A DNA stretch of 59,891 nt, from the IMG/VR virus record IMGVR_UViG_3300006111_000001. The stretch is one strand, 5' to 3'. Shown here in pieces: positions 37,908 to 59,891 of the stretch (positions are counted from its first letter, which is position 1; each line of letters begins with the position of its first letter). The notes beneath the pieces were generated by a model. The model had not been told where the DNA came from. It did no database searches and saw only the letters and a program-made list of their open reading frames with translations. A program made the translations under genes and the position numbers. This DNA is from a virus.

Positions 37908-39313
37908 GATGGTAGTCTCCCTTTGTGTTTAGGTTCGTAAGCAATCTTTGTTTGTTGAGTAGTGGTAGCAGACCGAAGCATGGCGGCGCGCATGGCGGAT
38001 TTCATCTTGCTGTGATCCATCGCCTTGCGGTCAATCACGCGTCCGATCTCGGATTCACCCTCTGCAACGATCAAGTGAACATTGACAGGTTTAGTCTGTC
38101 CAAACCGCCAGCAACGGCGGACGGCCTGATACCATGTCTCATAGGAATAGCCGCGACCGACAAACGCCATATCAGCGCAATGCGACCAATCTAAGCCATA
38201 TCCAAGCATCGACGGCTTGCCGATCAGCACCTTGATATCGCCCGAAGCAAAAGCCTCTAGTCGGCTTTCCTTTTCATCAATGGATTGTGCCCCCCGAACC
38301 TCAACCGCAAAAGGCAAAGCCTTTTTAACGCTGTCGGCTTCATAATCGGTATCAACCCAAATGATCCACGGTTTATCTTGAGTGACGAAGCCGCCCAAAA
38401 CATCCGTTCTAGCGGCAGCGGTTTGACGTTTCACGTCATGCAGATTGGTCGCTGATAGGGCCAGATGGGCAAATAGATCATTGCCATCGGTTTTAATTTC
38501 GGTTTGGGCCGCCTGATGCCGGATAATTTCCATCGGCGGCAGATCAAACCGCGAGTCAGTTTCCATGTCCCCCAGATCAGCCGGACGTTCAGCCATCCGG
38601 CACCAAGATGCCATCCAATCCCAAAATGAAATCTCAGCATGACCCTTAAGCCGCCACTCTTGGGAAGCGGTTGAAGTGTCATTGATAAAGAACCGGGATA
38701 GCATTTCATTTGCGGCCATGATTTCAAGAAATTCAGCATAATTGCCAATTTCCATGTGATCATTCGGGGCCGGTGTCGCGGTCGCTGTCAGCTTAAACCG
38801 ATGACCCTTGAACGCATCAATCAACGCCCGCGTGGTTTTATTTGTAAATGATTTAAGAATTGACGCCTCATCAAGTGACACGGCACCAAAAGCATCAGGA
38901 TCAATCTTATCCAAGCGGTCATAATTGCAAATGTTAATTCCTGGTCCAACATCTGACATTTCGCGGATTACGCGGGCCTCATAACCATACTTATCCGCCC
39001 GGCGCTTGGTTTGTTGCGCGACAGCTAACGGCGTCAGCAATAAACCGCGCCCGTTAGTCGCCTTCATGGCGTGGTACAAATACTCAAGCTGGATCTCGGT
39101 TTTGCCCATGCCAGTGTCTAAAAACAACCCAGCCGCGCCGACGCGCAAATTATGGTCAACGCATTCGCGCTGAAACGGAAACAAATGATCCGCTAACAAC
39201 GCATCGCCCTTTAAGCCGCGCATAACCGCACGAGGCTGCTTGGACGCAAGAAAAGATTGATAATCACCGTTCATTTGGTGTCCCAGCATAAAATTTTGTG
39301 TCAACCGGCTCAC
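37835..39313 (-). CDS. SNF2-like superfamily-2 helicase/ATPase
   Basis: 492 aa; Walker A (LDTGMGKT), DEAH-like motif II (VSLDEAS), motif III (LTATATP), and C-terminal …QAVRRCWRFGQTKPVNVHLIVAEGESE typical of SNF2 motif VI. Confidence 0.7.
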   Translation of the reverse strand: MSRLTQNFMLGHQMNGDYQSFLASKQPRAVMRGLKGDALLADHLFPFQRECVDHNLRVGAAGLFLDTGMGKTEIQLEYLYHAMKATNGRGLLLTPLAVAQQTKRRADKYGYEARVIREMSDVGPGINICNYDRLDKIDPDAFGAVSLDEASILKSFTNKTTRALIDAFKGHRFKLTATATPAPNDHMEIGNYAEFLEIMAANEMLSRFFINDTSTASQEWRLKGHAEISFWDWMASWCRMAERPADLGDMETDSRFDLPPMEIIRHQAAQTEIKTDGNDLFAHLALSATNLHDVKRQTAAARTDVLGGFVTQDKPWIIWVDTDYEADSVKKALPFAVEVRGAQSIDEKESRLEAFASGDIKVLIGKPSMLGYGLDWSHCADMAFVGRGYSYETWYQAVRRCWRFGQTKPVNVHLIVAEGESEIGRVIDRKAMDHSKMKSAMRAAMLRSATTTQQTKIAYEPKHKGRLPSWLTATTNTTASGLRRSTETALAS

Positions 39314-39466: not shown

Positions 39467-40654
39467 TCATGCCGCCGCCCTCACATCCATATATGCACCT
39501 ATGAACTCTGCCGCTGCTTGCGGGACAATCGCGTTACCGAAGCCGCGCAACATACCCACTCGGTTGGGTAGCCCATCAACCAAGAGACAAATTCCGGGTT
39601 TAACTGGCCTGGCTTTTCCGTCGATCCCGACAATCCGTTCTGCATCGGCCCAATAATTGCCGCTTGAACGTTCAACGCTTGGCTGTTGCGTTCGAATTGT
39701 GACGGCCCCGCGTTGTTTTTGGCGTCGTTCGTTGTCGGCGTCGACCAATAAACCATAGACGGAAGCGTCATGCTCCCCGATCCGTATTTCTGGTTCGGTC
39801 CGCCCTTGTCGCCGTCTGTCGCTTTGGGCGTCGACCAAAGCGCCGGCACATGATCCTGCAAATTGACCTGGTGCCCCGATTGTATCCGGGCTGCCGCTTT
39901 GTCCGGGTCCGTATAGTCCCCGCCGCCCTTCTCGCGCACTTGCGGCGTCGCCCAAAGCGCCGTCGTCTGGCGCAACAACAAGCCCCCTTGTAAATTCGGT
40001 TGAAGCTGCGCGCCCGTCCCGTCGTTCGCCCGAGGCGTCGGCCAAAGTGCTTGGATCGTATTCTGTAGCGTCACTGTTGCTTTTGAGCCGTCCGGCCGGA
40101 CCCCTGTCGGCGTCGTACCGGGAGGATTGCTTTGCCCGCCGCTCGGAGTTGTGGGCGTGGGCCACAAAGAACAATCGGTCGCGGCGGTGCGGCGCGCCGA
40201 CGGCACAAGCCGGAATAATCGCCGCCCCAACGGCGTAATCAAGTCCTTCAAGATCATTGGCGACATTGTCGAGCCATGATTGACCAACCGCTGCCGCAAC
40301 CTGTTCGCCAAACAGGTTTGAAGGTCGACACTCGCCGACGAGCCGAAACAATTCCGGCCAGAGGTGACGCTTGTCGTCGACCCCTTGCCGCTTTCCCGCG
40401 ACACTGAAGGGCTGGCATGGTGGCGAGCCGGTCCAGACGGGACGGTCGACCGGCCATCCGGCAAGTCTAAGAGCCTCGGCCCATCCCCCGATTCCGGCGA
40501 AGAAATGGACTTGGTCGAATCCGACAAGGTCGGCGCCGGTGACGTCGCAAATAGATCGAATGTCGACGAATCCATCTGGAATCAATCCTTGTTTGATTAG
40601 CTCGCGCAACCAAGCAGCGGCAAACGGATCGTTTTCGTTGTAATAAGCCGTCAT
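39467..40654 (-). CDS. DNA (cytosine-5) methyltransferase; conserved motifs split between two reading frames
   Basis: 395-aa frame carries motif I (FFAGIGG), motif IV (GSPPCQPFSVAG), motif VI (FGEQV), motif VIII-like (RRDRLFFV) and C-terminal motif X-like (GNAIVPQAAAEFI). The overlapping frame 39499..40575 carries five LW(P/A/S)TP repeats and a motif IX-like LMGYPTEW. Confidence 0.65.
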   Translation of the reverse strand: MTAYYNENDPFAAAWLRELIKQGLIPDGFVDIRSICDVTGADLVGFDQVHFFAGIGGWAEALRLAGWPVDRPVWTGSPPCQPFSVAGKRQGVDDKRHLWPELFRLVGECRPSNLFGEQVAAAVGQSWLDNVANDLEGLDYAVGAAIIPACAVGAPHRRDRLFFVAHAHNSERRAKQSSRYDADRGPAGRLKSNSDATEYDPSTLADASGERRDGRAASTEFTRGLVVAPDDGALGDAASAREGRRGLYGPGQSGSPDTIGAPGQFAGSCAGALVDAQSDRRRQGRTEPEIRIGEHDASVYGLLVDADNERRQKQRGAVTIRTQQPSVERSSGNYWADAERIVGIDGKARPVKPGICLLVDGLPNRVGMLRGFGNAIVPQAAAEFIGAYMDVRAAA

Positions 40655-41082: not shown

Positions 41083-41450
41083 CAGGCCGCAACACGCTTT
41101 AATGCGGCTTCACCCAACGGAGTGGTGGCAAGCATGCCCAAAGCGTTCAAATACAATTCCAGCTTTGCTTCTTCTTCATCGCGCTGCGCTTTGTCTTTTT
41201 TGCGAAGCGCAATGACCTTGCGGATGATTTTGGTTTCAAACCCGTGAGCAGCCGCCTCCGCGTACACATCCTTAATGTCCCCAGCCAGCTCTGCCTTCTC
41301 GGTTTCAAGGCGCTCAATCCGCTCCACTATTGACTGCAATTGTCCGTTTGAAATTGTCATTCTCAATCTCCAAAAAGGCCAGGGCCAAAGCCCCGGCAAG
41401 TTGAGGGAGGTACGCCCGTGTGGGCCTGTTGAGCAGGTAAAAACCCGCAA
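41082..41450 (-). CDS. gapR: GapR-like (DUF2312) nucleoid-associated protein
   Basis: 122 aa; …QLQSIVERIERLETEKAELAGDIKDVYAEAAAHGFETKIIRKVIALRKKDKAQRDEEEAKLELYLNALGM closely follows the Caulobacter GapR/DUF2312 sequence. Confidence 0.8.
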   Translation of the reverse strand: MRVFTCSTGPHGRTSLNLPGLWPWPFWRLRMTISNGQLQSIVERIERLETEKAELAGDIKDVYAEAAAHGFETKIIRKVIALRKKDKAQRDEEEAKLELYLNALGMLATTPLGEAALKRVAA

Positions 41451-41460
41451 TTCTTAAAAC

Positions 41461-42063
41461 TCAATCGCCAGTTAAATCGGAAAATACAGGTCCATCACTT
41501 TGTGACCCGTTCGAATGCACCAATGGCCGATCCGATTCAGCGCGGATGCCGTCAAAATCAGCCCGCGCTTGTAAAATGCGATCCGCCAATTGCGCATGTT
41601 CTTTCTGTAAATCATCCAATTCCCCTCGGATTCGTAGCATTGCCGTGTCGCCACAAGCTGGTTCAAACACAAACGCCACAAACCGATACCCAAATAAGCC
41701 GCTTAACCGCGAAATATGCTTTCCGCTTGGGTACTTGCCCTCAAGCCATTCCCGAACGGTGCGCTCATCACTATCAACCGCTCTCGCCACCTCTTTCACG
41801 GTATTGCGCGGATAGGCTTGGCGCAGCCAGAACGCCACGCGCGATCCCATTTCAGGAACGGCATCAACGCACGGCATTTTTTTGGTAACTTTCACTGTGT
41901 ATTTGCTCATCGTTCCCTCGCATTTTAATGATGCAAGGACGGGAGCCAGATTGATGATTGAACGGGAATTGGAGCGTGACGACCTTGGCCGGAATGACAC
42001 GCTCGACAATTGGGTAAAACTTGATATGGCGACAGGACTGGCCTTGATCGTCATTGGCTGCAA
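41461..42063 (-). CDS. Hypothetical early protein (possible regulator)
   Basis: 200-aa track ORF; likely starts at the internal MSKYTVKVTKKMPCVD…; contains a …DERTVREWLEG… HTH-like stretch. Confidence 0.35.
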   Translation of the reverse strand: MQPMTIKASPVAISSFTQLSSVSFRPRSSRSNSRSIINLAPVLASLKCEGTMSKYTVKVTKKMPCVDAVPEMGSRVAFWLRQAYPRNTVKEVARAVDSDERTVREWLEGKYPSGKHISRLSGLFGYRFVAFVFEPACGDTAMLRIRGELDDLQKEHAQLADRILQARADFDGIRAESDRPLVHSNGSQSDGPVFSDLTGD

Positions 42064-42125
42064 ACTTATTAACCGGTCGGATCATCCCCAACCGATTGGC
42101 GAACAAGTTGCGGCCAATGACTGAT

Positions 42126-42374
42126 CTAGCCAGCATTACGCACCTCATCATTTTGAGATTGCGGCAATGGCACCAAAAAAATGTCTGGCCTTAATTCGCA
42201 CCGGGAAATACCGGTTGCCCTTTCAATGGCCAACGCATTTTCGGCTGAAATCTTGGTTGAACGATTAACCCATGCCCAAATGGACGGCTGTTTGACCCCA
42301 ATGGCGCGGGCCAAGGCGTTTTGTCCACCGGCAATCTCTAATGCGCGTTGCAGCGCGGTTATAGGCGTGTTCAT
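42126..42374 (-). CDS. Cro-like HTH regulator
   Basis: Divergent from the CI-like gene. Track ORF begins at TTG 42410; the ATG at 42374 (MNTPITALQRALEIAGGQNALARAIGVKQPSIWAWVNRS…) is the more likely start. Confidence 0.55.
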   Translation of the reverse strand: MNTPITALQRALEIAGGQNALARAIGVKQPSIWAWVNRSTKISAENALAIERATGISRCELRPDIFLVPLPQSQNDEVRNAG

Positions 42375-42457
42375 AGGTTTGTCTATATAGGCAAACCAAA
42401 GCCGCGTCAATAGTGGATGCTATTGGAAAAATGAGTTTTTTTAATTAATGTGCGGAC
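42375..42457. promoter_or_regulatory. Divergent cI/cro-like switch region with operator-like palindromes
   Basis: Near-perfect palindrome GGTTTGtcTATATAggCAAACC (42375..42398) abutting the cro-like ATG; inverted repeat CAATAG-N6-CTATTG (42408..42425); candidate -35/-10 hexamers on both strands. Confidence 0.45.
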
Positions 42458-43120
42458 ATGGAAACTTTAGGTAAACGAGTGCGCGCCCGTCGCGCTGATT
42501 TAAAATTGTCTCAAGCGGAACTTGCCAGCCGCGTGGGCATATCTCAGCCGTCTTTATCAGCCATTGAAAATGACGAGACTCAAGGCACCACCAAAATATT
42601 AAAGCTGGCAGAAGTATTGGAATGTGACCCCAATTGGCTTTTGATGGGCAATAAACTAAAGTTTAGCGTCCCCAACAAACTTACAACTTATAAAAATAAT
42701 CCTGTTGCAAACGAATCAGTTTTTACTACCATCAATATGGGCAAAAGAGACTTACCTATTAGAGGTCTGGCTCAAGGGGGTGATGGGGTGCTAACATTTG
42801 ACCAAGACGCAATAGATTATACTTTTCGTCCATCTAATTTAGTCGGCATAGATGAAGCGTTTGCGCTTTATGTTACCGGCGACTCCATGGGCGAAGTCTT
42901 GATCCCAGGCACTTTGTTATTGGTTCACCCCAAACAAGAACCAAAAATTATGGATTTTGTCGTTATTGAAAAAATTGACCGATCCGTAATCGTTAAACGA
43001 TTGGTTCGCAGATCGGCCAATAGCGTCACCTTGCGCGAATACGACCCGCCCAATGATTTTGTGCTTTCTCGCAGCGAAATTCGAATGATGTTGCGGGTTT
43101 GCGGGACGGCCATGGAATGA
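42458..43120 (+). CDS. CI-like repressor (HTH_XRE plus S24 LexA-like peptidase domain)
   Basis: 220 aa; N-terminal …LKLSQAELASRVGISQPSLSAIENDET… HTH; C-terminal …FALYVTGDSMGEVLIPGTLLLVHP…VIVKRL… with Ser and Lys catalytic-dyad context. Confidence 0.8.
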   Translation: METLGKRVRARRADLKLSQAELASRVGISQPSLSAIENDETQGTTKILKLAEVLECDPNWLLMGNKLKFSVPNKLTTYKNNPVANESVFTTINMGKRDLPIRGLAQGGDGVLTFDQDAIDYTFRPSNLVGIDEAFALYVTGDSMGEVLIPGTLLLVHPKQEPKIMDFVVIEKIDRSVIVKRLVRRSANSVTLREYDPPNDFVLSRSEIRMMLRVCGTAME

Positions 43121-43443
43121 AACGGCTTGCCGCACTCTTTATACTAGGAGCATGCGCCAGCCCTCAGCTGGCCACACCCCAACAAAAAAACGAGGCAATC
43201 AAAACCTGGTTTGATTGCATGACTATAAAAGCCGTGCAATTCGACGACCACCAATCCGATGCCGGATCAATCGCTTTGGGCATTATGGGGCTTTGCCACA
43301 CGGATTTTATGGAAAGCGTGCGTTTACAATTAACCGGCACATCCCCAGCCCTTCAAACCAATCTTAAGGCCAAGCTTTTAAACGATGAACTGCCAATGGC
43401 AACCAGCGTCGTTTTAACGGTGCGATCCCCTCAAAAACGCTAA
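43117..43443 (+). CDS. Lipoprotein (possible superinfection-exclusion protein)
   Basis: MKRLAALFILGACASPQ lipobox-like signal (…LGAC); immediately downstream of the CI-like gene with ATGA overlap. The track ORF starts 18 nt upstream at 43099. Confidence 0.5.
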   Translation: MKRLAALFILGACASPQLATPQQKNEAIKTWFDCMTIKAVQFDDHQSDAGSIALGIMGLCHTDFMESVRLQLTGTSPALQTNLKAKLLNDELPMATSVVLTVRSPQKR

Positions 43444-43522
43444 TTTGACGCCGGGCAAATTTTTGCAAATTTTCTCCATGCCCAAAATTATCGGTATTTC
43501 TATATTGCAATAAATTTGCCTA

Positions 43523-43551
43523 TTGACCGTAAATATAGTTTGTCCTATAAA
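43523..43551 (+). promoter_or_regulatory. Candidate sigma70-type promoter of the rightward early operon
   Basis: TTGACC (43523..43528), 17-nt spacer, TATAAA (43546..43551); preceded by palindromic GCAAA..TTTGC sites and followed by paired GC-rich hairpins. Confidence 0.4.
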
Positions 43552-43650
43552 TATTTCCGTCACCGGATGCACCCCCGGTGAAGCAGCGGCCCCGGTACAA
43601 ACCCTCCTGCATCGAGCCGGGGCCGCTGACCACCACAAGGGAGATTTGAT

Positions 43651-44179: not shown

Positions 44180-44740
44180 ATGCTATTCACAATCCCTTTC
44201 CGTTCATGGACTGGCAAAGCCGCATTTGAGGTCGAGATCGCCGACGATGTTGAACCGCGCTTTCAAATGCGCGCTGCCTTGTCGGTTGTGATCGGCAAAG
44301 CCAAAGAAAAGGGCGAACGTGCCAATCTCAGCCGTGCCGATCTCAGCGGTGCCGATCTCAGCGGTGCCTATCTCAGCGGTGCCGATCTCAGCGGTGCCTA
44401 TCTCAGCGGTGCCAATCTCAGCGGTGCCGATCTCAGCGGTGCCGATCTCAGCGGTGCCTATCTCAGCGGTGCCGATCTCAGCGGTGCCTATCTCAGCCGT
44501 GCTAAAGGTGCATTTTCGCTTGGAACGCCGGATGGTTGGTCGGCTGTTGCTTGGCTGCGCGACGGTTTCTTATCGATCCGCGTCGGTTGCCGAGATAAGC
44601 GGTTAGATGAAGCCCGCGCATATTGGGCCAATAAAAATGACCGGTGCGAAGTTATGGCGGCGCTGGATTACGCTGAAATAATTGCGCGCCTTCGTGGTTG
44701 GGCCATTGAAGCACCGGCTGAACAAGTGGCAGCGGAGTAA
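44180..44740 (+). CDS. Pentapeptide-repeat protein
   Basis: 186 aa; central run of ~12 consecutive pentapeptides A(D/N/Y)LSG ([25 protein letters not shown]…) flanked by unique N- and C-terminal segments. Confidence 0.75.
44327..44503 (+). repeat. Tandem 15-bp repeat (~11.8 copies) encoding the pentapeptide repeats
   Basis: Near-identical units ctcagcggtgccgat / ctcagcggtgcctat / ctcagcggtgccaat in head-to-tail array. Confidence 0.9.
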
Positions 44741-55661: not shown

Positions 55662-56834
55662 TTGATTCGCTCATTCAACTACATCCCAGCGCGTGCAGCC
55701 GGTCAAATTTTGTTTGACGGATTCCCATATCAATCCGCGATTGAGTGGCCCAATTTCATTCATGGCCAATGTCAAAACATTCAAGCCAATGGTCAGCCCG
55801 ATCAATTTGGATGGCGATACAAAACCATTGACGGCACCCCTTACCTTTTGGCCGATGACCCATTTGTGGTCAAATTAAAAAACGCAATGGTTCAGCGCGT
55901 CAATTTTGGTCAAGACCGCTGGCACGTTGCCGTCAGCCCAGGGGTTTGTATTGAAGAAACCTATTATTCGGGCGAATGGTTTAACCGTTTTTGCGGTCAA
56001 ACCATGAGAATCCCCACCAATGCCGGATCGTTTGACGTGCATGTCATGGAAGATATTGCGCCAGAGTCGGTGTCATCCGTCCCCAGCGTATTATTGGCTC
56101 ATCAATGGGACACGAATTATGCGCATTGCCTAATGGAAACCGTGGGAAAATTGTTTTTAGCAGAACATTGGGACGATCATTTGCCGCAGCTAATCTGGAA
56201 CCCGACAACCCCATATCAGCGCGAGATTGCGGATTTGCTATCAATCAAATACGTTCCGCAAACCCAAAAAGCCGTTCAATACGATGAATTATATGTCATT
56301 TCCCAATTTGCCCATAACGGGATTTGCGCGGAACAGTTCAAACAAATCCGCGCGCTGTTTCAACAAAGGCTTTGCGACAAAATCCCTTATTTCTCAAATC
56401 CCCCAGTTACATCAGGCAACAAGCGCATTCTGATTTCCAGAAACGACGCCACCAGCCGCCGTATTGCTAATGAATCAAACATAATGACCGCCCTGGCTCC
56501 CATGGGCTTTGAGCGTGTCACGTTGAGCAATTTAAGCGTGCTCGACCAGGCCAAGCTATTTCATTCAGCATCAATCATTGTGGCGCCACACGGCGCCGGA
56601 TTAATGAATATGCTGTTTGCCAGCCCCAGCACCGCCTTGATTGAAATTGCCCCCGAATCCTACCAGCACCCTTTGTTCTGGTACGTCGCCAAGTGGTTGG
56701 GCCATTGGTACGGGCGAATCATCACCCCGGATCACGGTTCCGAAAAAGACATGATTGTTGACATTGCGGCGGTTAAAAACGCCATTGACGCCGCCATATC
56801 GTCTAAAAGTGTACGGTCATCACTTGTTGCATAG
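55662..56834 (+). CDS. Glycosyltransferase, GT61/DUF563-like
   Basis: 390 aa; C-terminal …RILISRNDATSRRIANESNIMTALAPMGFERVTL…LFHSASIIVAPHGAGLMNMLFASP… resembles the DUF563/GT61 core. Confidence 0.55.
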   Translation: MIRSFNYIPARAAGQILFDGFPYQSAIEWPNFIHGQCQNIQANGQPDQFGWRYKTIDGTPYLLADDPFVVKLKNAMVQRVNFGQDRWHVAVSPGVCIEETYYSGEWFNRFCGQTMRIPTNAGSFDVHVMEDIAPESVSSVPSVLLAHQWDTNYAHCLMETVGKLFLAEHWDDHLPQLIWNPTTPYQREIADLLSIKYVPQTQKAVQYDELYVISQFAHNGICAEQFKQIRALFQQRLCDKIPYFSNPPVTSGNKRILISRNDATSRRIANESNIMTALAPMGFERVTLSNLSVLDQAKLFHSASIIVAPHGAGLMNMLFASPSTALIEIAPESYQHPLFWYVAKWLGHWYGRIITPDHGSEKDMIVDIAAVKNAIDAAISSKSVRSSLVA

Positions 56835-59771: not shown

Positions 59772-59891
59772 TCAGATTGATATAGGTTGACGTGGAAACG
59801 GTCGGAGTCGCCGTCAACGTATCGCCGCTTTTCAAAAACAAATATGGATTTCCATAATTGTCCAATGGCAAACCCTGCCAAGTTGCAGAAT
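59772..59891. repeat. Terminal direct repeat, right copy (identical to 1..120)
   Basis: Exact 120-nt match to window start; implies a unit genome of ~59771 bp. Confidence 0.9.

Follow-up and report, generated by a model that had tools for sequence, protein, structure and literature searches.

The divergent gene pair and its genome

The window, by which we mean the whole 59,891-nucleotide stretch of viral DNA analysed here, carries a small cro-like gene and a cI-like repressor gene that diverge from a short interval, with a further open reading frame directly behind the repressor:

42126–42374, minus strand: cro-like gene, 82 aa, Cro/YdaS-family helix-turn-helix protein with recognition helix KQPSIWAW
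42375–42457, no strand assigned: OR-like intergenic control region, 83 bp, 37% G+C against 51% in the window
42458–43120, plus strand: cI-like repressor gene, 220 aa, N-terminal helix-turn-helix and C-terminal S24 autopeptidase
43117–43443, plus strand: lipoprotein-like open reading frame from the gene calls, 108 aa, starting MKRLAALFILGAC and overlapping the cI stop codon (ATGA)

The first-pass annotation had placed about 83 bp between a Cro-like ATG at 42374 and a CI-like ATG at 42458; these coordinates are right, and Pfam, PHROG and PDB matches agree on the identity of both genes. The cro start codon is the reverse complement of CAT at 42372–42374, and the N-termini of homologues favour the ATG at 42374 rather than an upstream TTG at 42410. 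The Cro-like protein matches the Pfam family YdaS_toxin (PF15943) with E=5.5e-21 and 74.6 bits, against a curated cut-off of 30, matches P22_Cro more weakly and falls in phrog_35. Its best solved relative is Xfaso1 Cro, from a Xylella prophage (PDB 3bd1, E=3e-6). The YdaS 'toxin' that gave the family its Pfam name is re-read as a Cro in one report (PMC5917428).

The CI-like protein combines Pfam HTH_3 and Peptidase_S24 domains (E=1.1e-10) and falls in phrog_4. Among its PDB matches, which also include LexA, the N-terminal domain is nearest to 434 Cro (E=2.4e-10) and P22 c2 (E=7e-10), and its recognition helix reads SQPSLSAI. Ser143 (in GDSM) and Lys180 (in VKRL) align with the LexA catalytic dyad, S119 and K156, and Gly107-Gly108, which is not a canonical Ala-Gly, aligns with the LexA cleavage site at Ala84-Gly85. 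Self-cleavage is predicted from this alignment, probably at Gly107-Gly108. Relatives of the repressor amount to 4 matches in 5.8 billion proteins, matches among deposited phages reach at most 36% identity, and a search of genome contigs with CI as a single protein returned no relative. The layout of a divergent helix-turn-helix repressor and a small Cro-type gene recurs in the loci L005, L016, L020 and L021. In two of these, the repressor start is wrong in the public gene calls, 58 nt too early in L005 (L005:4001-4059) and 30 nt too late in L016 (L016:1885-1915), probably because it has no Shine-Dalgarno sequence; homology-guided starts bring the intergenic length back to 85 bp in both.

The 108-residue open reading frame that overlaps the end of cI encodes a lipoprotein-type signal with a lipobox and is probably co-transcribed with the repressor. 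Family searches (Pfam, PHROG) gave no match for it, and at its position L016 encodes a DUF3251 protein. It is a candidate for a moron expressed in the lysogen or for an exclusion protein.

An exact direct repeat of 120 bp joins the two ends of the window (positions 1–120 equal 59772–59891), which indicates a complete circular assembly of about 59,771 bp. The window is thus not a prophage with host DNA on its flanks but a complete circular temperate-phage genome, with genes for a major head protein, helicase, methylases, GapR, RusA, integrase, exonuclease and SSB. Genes for a GapR-like protein, RusA, a methyltransferase, a helicase and head proteins follow cro on the minus strand. On the plus strand, cI is followed by the lipoprotein-like open reading frame, a 207-bp gap and then, from 43651 onward, an early operon encoding a PD-(D/E)XK nuclease (exonuclease), AAA_24, SSB and a tyrosine integrase. 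The layout is lambda-like, with cro and late genes in one direction and cI, moron and a PL-type operon in the opposite one. As the genome is circular, the glycosyltransferase-like genes past the integrase (for example 55662–56834) would be phage-borne. No tRNA genes and no Rfam families were found in the window, and a DNA similarity search against 50,697 deposited phages gave no match. Twelve contigs carry the same phage (L001, L002 and L006–L015); they are 100% identical over 1.2–2.3 kb, and the comparisons below were therefore made across the Cro family.

Three minus-strand observations concern the genes beyond cro. Public gene calls include a 90-residue open reading frame (41864–42151) with an 11-nt overlap with the end of cro, and a 149-residue protein (41461–41910) with a weak helix-turn-helix match and no family, which occupies the place expected for a cII-like regulator. 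Further along, at 39467–40654, open reading frames of 395 residues (a C5 DNA methyltransferase) and 358 residues overlap almost completely in different frames, the latter being probably a by-product of locally high G+C.

A spaced, putative operator motif in two control regions

The interval between the two genes had been described as holding operator-like palindromes, a reading that holds once the repeated unit is redrawn. A 22-bp near-palindrome does lie beside the cro start, GGTTTGTCTATATAGGCAAACC, with 20/22 positions self-complementary; it is unique at such quality in the 59.9 kb, where shuffled sequences hold about 0.47 per window, and about 6e-4 would be expected in an 83-bp stretch. The other element that had been noted, the inverted repeat CAATAG-N6-CTATTG at 42408–42425, is perfect. 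Taken alone it is insignificant, being one of 28 perfect 6-N6-6 inverted repeats in the window; it is significant as one member of a repeated motif, ATAG-N6-CTAT, a core recognized by comparison with L016, the closest syntenic relative. The 22-bp palindrome is itself a composite of one exact copy of this core and one degenerate, mirrored copy, and the exact copy crosses the cro ATG and so lies partly outside 42375–42457. The sites, none with an assigned strand, are as follows:

42376–42397: 22-bp near-palindrome GGTTTGTCTATATAGGCAAACC, consisting of the spacer and right arm of OR1, then the mirrored left arm and spacer of OR1′
42371–42388: OR1, TCATAG-GTTTGT-CTATAT, exact core at 42373–42386, over the cro -10, +1 and start codon
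42385–42402: OR1′, degenerate copy adjoining OR1, core at 42387–42400, 6/8
42408–42425: OR2, CAATAG-TGGATG-CTATTG, exact core at 42410–42423, arms overlapping both -35 hexamers
43488–43505: OL3 candidate, TTATCG-GTATTT-CTATAT, core 7/8
43508–43525: OL2, CAATAA-ATTTGC-CTATTG, core 7/8, arms matching those of OR2 at 11/12
43533–43550: OL1, ATATAG-TTTGTC-CTATAA, exact core at 43535–43548, overlapping the -10 of a PL-like promoter

The exact core occurs three times in the 59.9-kb window, and all three copies lie in the two regulatory regions, which together span 316 bp. In 1000 shuffles preserving local composition, these regions held a mean of 0.009 copies and never more than one. At a threshold of at least 7/8, the window has 15 copies, of which five lie in the OR and OL control regions. 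A generic local alignment of OR against OL was not significant (score 18, against 16.5 +/- 2.3 for shuffles), and the signal common to both emerged solely as a spaced motif. OL2 lies in the 207-bp gap, and its right arm overlaps the -35 hexamer TTGACC in the same register as OR2 overlaps the -35 hexamer TTGACG of cro. Two further 7/8 copies lie inside the cI coding sequence (42746–42759 and 42812–42825) and may be chance matches or weak auxiliary sites. Close to OL there is also a separate short repeat: GCAAATTTT occurs twice in tandem, 10 bp apart (43454–43473), just past the stop of the lipoprotein-like open reading frame, and a third, inverted copy lies in the OL2 spacer (43512–43520), so that three of the ten copies in the window fall within 66 bp.

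The positions of these sites bear comparison with lambda, in which the centres of OR3, OR2 and OR1 lie 19, 42 and 66 nt away from the leaderless cI ATG. Across the family, palindromes cluster 16–20 and 64–68 nt from the cro ATG, which reproduces the lambda geometry if both ATGs are start sites; the operator centres are at 18 and 66 nt in L016 and at 17 and 65 nt in L025, the locus of a Stakelama MAG. In the window, OR1 is centred 5.5 nt from the cro ATG, OR1′ at 19.5 nt, a position like that of lambda OR1, and OR2 at 42416.5, between the ATGs and 42.5 and 41.5 nt from those of cro and cI, respectively. Sites over the ATG that are analogous to OR1 and match at 7/8 are found in L025, L059 and L062. 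The spacing of OR1 and OR2 is 37 bp, against 23–25 bp in relatives and in lambda. At its OL equivalent, L016 has AAATAG-GAAAGC-CTATTG(ACA) and ATATAG-GCCAAC-CTATAG, a two-operator arrangement as in the window, 23 bp apart.

An OR3 equivalent was not found in the window: no copy of at least 6/8 is centred beyond 42416.5 toward cI, whereas L016 and L025 do have an OR3-type site, 65–66 nt from the cro ATG. We considered an 8-bp palindrome, TTAATTAA (42441–42448), with an A5-N4-T5 tract, as an OR3-like site near cI, and rejected it as holding no copy of the motif. A third CTATTGAC word, in a two-mismatch inverted repeat at 41315–41334, was likewise set aside as a coding coincidence; it falls within the GapR-like gene, at the conserved N-terminus, and no usable -10 goes with it. 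The interval 42375–42457 also holds no alphaproteobacterial LexA or CtrA box, which we take to be GTTC-N7-GTTC and TTAA-N7-TTAA, respectively.

The Cro recognition helix predicts the presence of this operator. Among 75 non-redundant Cro-family loci, exact copies upstream of cro are found only in the window, L016 and L025, and the helix sequence QPS[IV]W is likewise confined to these three. Additional metagenomic loci were retrieved by the QPS[IV]W helix peptide; their Cro-like proteins are otherwise about 40–50% identical to that of the window, and the loci carry one to three exact copies, typically as three sites 24–25 bp apart, as in lambda. Over the resulting 83 loci, the exact site is present in 10/11 with QPS[IV]W and in 0/72 others (Fisher p=4.5e-12, a value that ignores kinship, four of the QPS[IV]W-positive loci being related to each other). 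On this correlation, a Cro helix reading QPS[IV]W predicts an ATAG-N6-CTAT operator.

For CI, the corresponding prediction is less well supported. Only the first three residues of the CI helix in the window (QPSLS) agree with the QPS[IV]W class, and the CI helices of L016 and L025 diverge further. In L124–L130, Cro and the divergent S24 repressor both carry QPSVW, with one operator type. Since both helices in the window begin with QPS, CI and Cro probably use the same sites, as in lambda; the assignment of sites to the two proteins, and the order of binding, we infer.

Promoter signals at the two start codons

Reading the interval for sigma-70-type promoters gives one candidate for each gene, and a third candidate lies in the OL region:

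42405–42410, minus strand: Pcro -35, TTGACG, 30 nt before the cro ATG, read from the sequence
42382–42389, minus strand: Pcro -10 candidates, TATATA (42389–42384, spacer 15) or TATAGA (42387–42382, spacer 17)
42423–42428, plus strand: PcI -35, TTGGAA, weak (4/6), 29 nt before the cI ATG, followed by an N17 spacer
42446–42451, plus strand: PcI -10, TAATGT, at -12 to -7 relative to the A of the cI ATG
43523–43551, plus strand: PL-like promoter, TTGACC-N17-TATAAA, read from the sequence, candidate driver of the early operon from 43651 onward

The -10-like hexamers that the first-pass annotation had reported near the start codons are in place, TAATGT 6 nt from the cI ATG and TATATA and TATAGA 9 and 7 nt from the cro ATG. 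The Pcro candidates imply a start 0–4 nt before the cro ATG; in neither is the sixth base T, and the better of the two hexamers has the 15-nt spacer. A strict sigma-70 consensus scan, run alongside a terminator scan, flagged no promoter in the OR or OL region, the PL-like promoter going unflagged because its sixth -10 base is A.

Both cro and cI start with ATG and have no Shine-Dalgarno sequence. Upstream of cI there is a GGA only, too near the ATG to serve as one, and the anti-Shine-Dalgarno pairing energies are +0.5 kcal/mol for cro and -3.2 kcal/mol for cI, against -6.4 to -9.3 kcal/mol for uncoupled neighbours.

We compared these features across the 75 non-redundant loci, with start codons set by homology and therefore independent of promoter signals. 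An exact TTGAC lies 29–31 nt before the cro ATG in 25/75 loci and hardly ever elsewhere; at this distance 48/75 loci have TTG, where other distance windows average 5.5. On the cro side, T at -13, A at -12 and -11 and T at -7 are enriched, and position -1 is C in 45/75 loci, a pyrimidine before a purine start being the usual context for transcription initiation. None of the 28 loci with this geometry has a Shine-Dalgarno-like motif, and exceptions with leaders of 20–25 nt do carry Shine-Dalgarno-like words; leaders bearing a Shine-Dalgarno sequence are clear in a Cupriavidus/Pseudomonas type and in L124–L130.

The repressor side shows a matching pattern. A divergent open reading frame of at least 80 residues starts 81–88 nt from the cro ATG in 38/75 loci, with a mode of 83 nt. 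Before its ATG, 23/38 loci have A at -11 and 20/38 have T at -7; a Shine-Dalgarno-like word was seen in 2/38, and the loci generally have a weak -35 or none. The window agrees with the family at all of these positions, in its -35 and -10 hexamers and in its spacing. The placement of Pcro and PcI suggests that both mRNAs are probably leaderless, starting at the start codon or no more than about 4 nt from it, as had been proposed for this interval; the proposal gains from the missing Shine-Dalgarno sequences and from the family -35, -10 and pyrimidine at -1, which would put +1 on the ATGs. We infer the start sites from these signals in the DNA.

A probable lambda-like switch and its alternatives

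The locus has divergent genes, an S24 repressor, repeated OR operators and a second OL cluster, as lambdoid switches do; an OR3 is absent, and the OR operators comprise two exact copies and one 6/8 copy rather than three strong sites. We think it likely that a lambda-like lysis/lysogeny switch has its OR-type control region in this interval; two back-to-back sigma-70-type promoters would yield leaderless mRNAs, and 18-mer ATAG-N6-CTAT operators would be common to CI and Cro. In a lysogen, CI dimers at OR1 and OR2 would shut Pcro, and at OL1 and OL2 they would shut the PL-like promoter, 1.1 kb away, whose -10, -35 and upstream flank would be covered by OL1, OL2 and possibly OL3. CI at OR2, 41.5 bp upstream of the cI start, would be placed like lambda CI at its own OR2 and may stimulate the weak PcI. 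With no OR3-type copy present, this central site would be the only one through which PcI is controlled. DNA damage would lead to S24 self-cleavage through Ser143 and Lys180, presumably dependent on RecA, and repression would be lifted; Cro made from its leaderless transcript could then take over the same sites and lower transcription from PcI and the early promoters.

A broader proposal, which we advance tentatively, is that the dual-leaderless design, with ATGs 81–88 bp apart and back-to-back promoters, is conserved in a large, mostly alphaproteobacterial group of temperate phages, and that the phage in the window has a reduced form of the switch, with two strong operators, no OR3 and a maintenance promoter that would be controlled solely through the central site.

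The palindromes could also be divided between proteins, with CI using CAATAG-N6-CTATTG at OR and OL, and GGTTTGYC-N6-GRCAAACC serving Cro autoregulation or a third regulator, such as the 149-residue helix-turn-helix protein at 41461–41910. The 22-bp palindrome is statistically unusual by itself as the sole one in the window, its outer arms GGTTTG and CAAACC are unexplained by the ATAG-N6-CTAT core, and TTTGYC recurs next to CTAT in OR1, OR1′, OL1 and OL2; a precedent exists in PY54, whose Cro binds one operator only (PMC4488713), and the CI helices differ among the three phages with a common operator. However, no regulatory region has a second 22-bp palindrome or TTTGYC-N6-GRCAAA, further copies of the arms in the window (GGTTTG-N10-CAAACC and TTTGYC-N6-GRCAAA) being at chance level and inside genes. 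The left half of the palindrome is fully covered by an exact copy of the core, the Cro and CI helices both begin with QPS, and the L124–L130 loci pair two QPSVW helices with one operator type. We regard split specificity as unlikely. It is quite unlikely, too, that the transcripts are conventional, with promoters farther upstream, in the opposite gene or elsewhere in the interval, leaders translated without a Shine-Dalgarno sequence (for example as A/U-rich, S1-dependent leaders) and the hexamers near the ATGs incidental. The consensus scan found no promoter and the hexamers are off consensus, -10-like words are easily found in an interval of 37% G+C, and the Cupriavidus/Pseudomonas type and L124–L130 do have leaders bearing Shine-Dalgarno sequences. 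Yet the fixed -35 (29–31 nt), the -10 at -12 to -7, the pyrimidine at -1 and the ATG spacing of about 83 nt recur in dozens of unrelated sequences, a pattern that is difficult to account for if transcription starts anywhere but at the ATG, and the window agrees with each of these positions.

A third reading would make the pair a RacR/YdaS-type module of a defective prophage, a repressor with a toxic regulator, and not a lysis/lysogeny switch. [quoted passage not shown] The Pfam name 'YdaS toxin' points in this direction, as does the E. coli Rac prophage itself, in which ydaS is repressed by RacR acting at a short divergent interval (PMC5700373). We consider this reading very improbable: the window is a complete circular genome with head, replication, recombination and integrase genes, the S24 catalytic dyad of its repressor is intact by alignment, an OL-like second operator set stands at the early operon and YdaS has been reinterpreted as a Cro (PMC5917428). 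The racR–ydaS pair resembles the locus in its Pfam YdaS Cro family and in its divergence from a repressor over a short interval (PMC5700373, PMC5917428), and differs from it in having no operator similarity with the window.

The lambda-like switch that we favour shares with lambda the divergent cI and cro genes, the self-cleaving S24 repressor, the second set of operators, at a promoter that follows cI on its own strand, and the repeated 17–18 bp palindromic operators over the lytic -10 and -35. The OR2 centre lies 42 nt from the cI ATG in lambda and 41.5 nt here, and the predicted start sites are about 84 bp apart, against about 83 in lambda, a spacing based on lambda PR +1 being position 38023, which we assume. 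The differences are also clear. Here there are two good OR operators, 37 bp apart, with one over the cro start codon; the window phage lacks an OR3-type site beside cI; the operator sequence is ATAG-N6-CTAT and, like the proteins, is unrelated in detail to its lambda counterpart. The CI N-terminus is nearer to 434 Cro and P22 c2, and the Cro is of the all-alpha YdaS/Xfaso1 type. With P22 c2 and 434 the locus shares the similarity of the CI N-terminal domain and the operator length of 18 bp, which is that of the P22 operators; identity is low, the half-site sequence is another one and the Cro here is of another family.

In lambda, the cI mRNA is leaderless (ref. 39 cited in PMC4488713), whereas here cro is probably leaderless too. 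A closer parallel in this respect is the immB region of the telomere phage PY54, in which both the cI and cro mRNAs start at AUG by RACE (Hammerl et al. 2015, PMC4488713). The two have in common divergent genes and promoters directly upstream of the start codons; the promoters are strong in PY54, and leaderlessness in the window is predicted. PY54 Cro binds a single 16-bp site beside cI, and its proteins and operators differ (PMC4488713), whereas the predicted operator copies here are located toward cro and in the middle of the interval.

The locus is a known, lambdoid kind of switch, and a well-formed but ordinary example of it. The analysis provides a testable map of the immunity region of an uncultured phage, with its operators, promoters, predicted starts and predicted cleavage site, and the rule that links the QPS[IV]W helix to ATAG-N6-CTAT could help to predict immunity groups from sequence. 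In about half of the Cro family the two ATGs stay about 83 bp apart, and the promoter signals would place +1 on both starts; should this be confirmed, leaderless mRNAs for both switch genes would be a common trait and not one special to lambda cI or PY54. We consider the dual-leaderless spacing and the operator rule useful rather than surprising, and the understanding of such switches is unchanged.

The early plus-strand operon has two further features. Its predicted leader from the PL-like promoter, of 92 nt (43556–43650), folds into two hairpins with a minimum free energy of -44.1 kcal/mol (z=-3.4 against shuffles); one has a perfect 12-bp G+C-rich stem (43584–43595 with 43617–43628), with no T-run after it and no Rfam match, and the hairpins could possibly be a nut-like, processing or pause site. 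Within the operon, 44180–44740 encodes a pentapeptide-repeat protein with repeats of a ten-residue sequence, which in the related contig L007 is shorter, at 156 residues.
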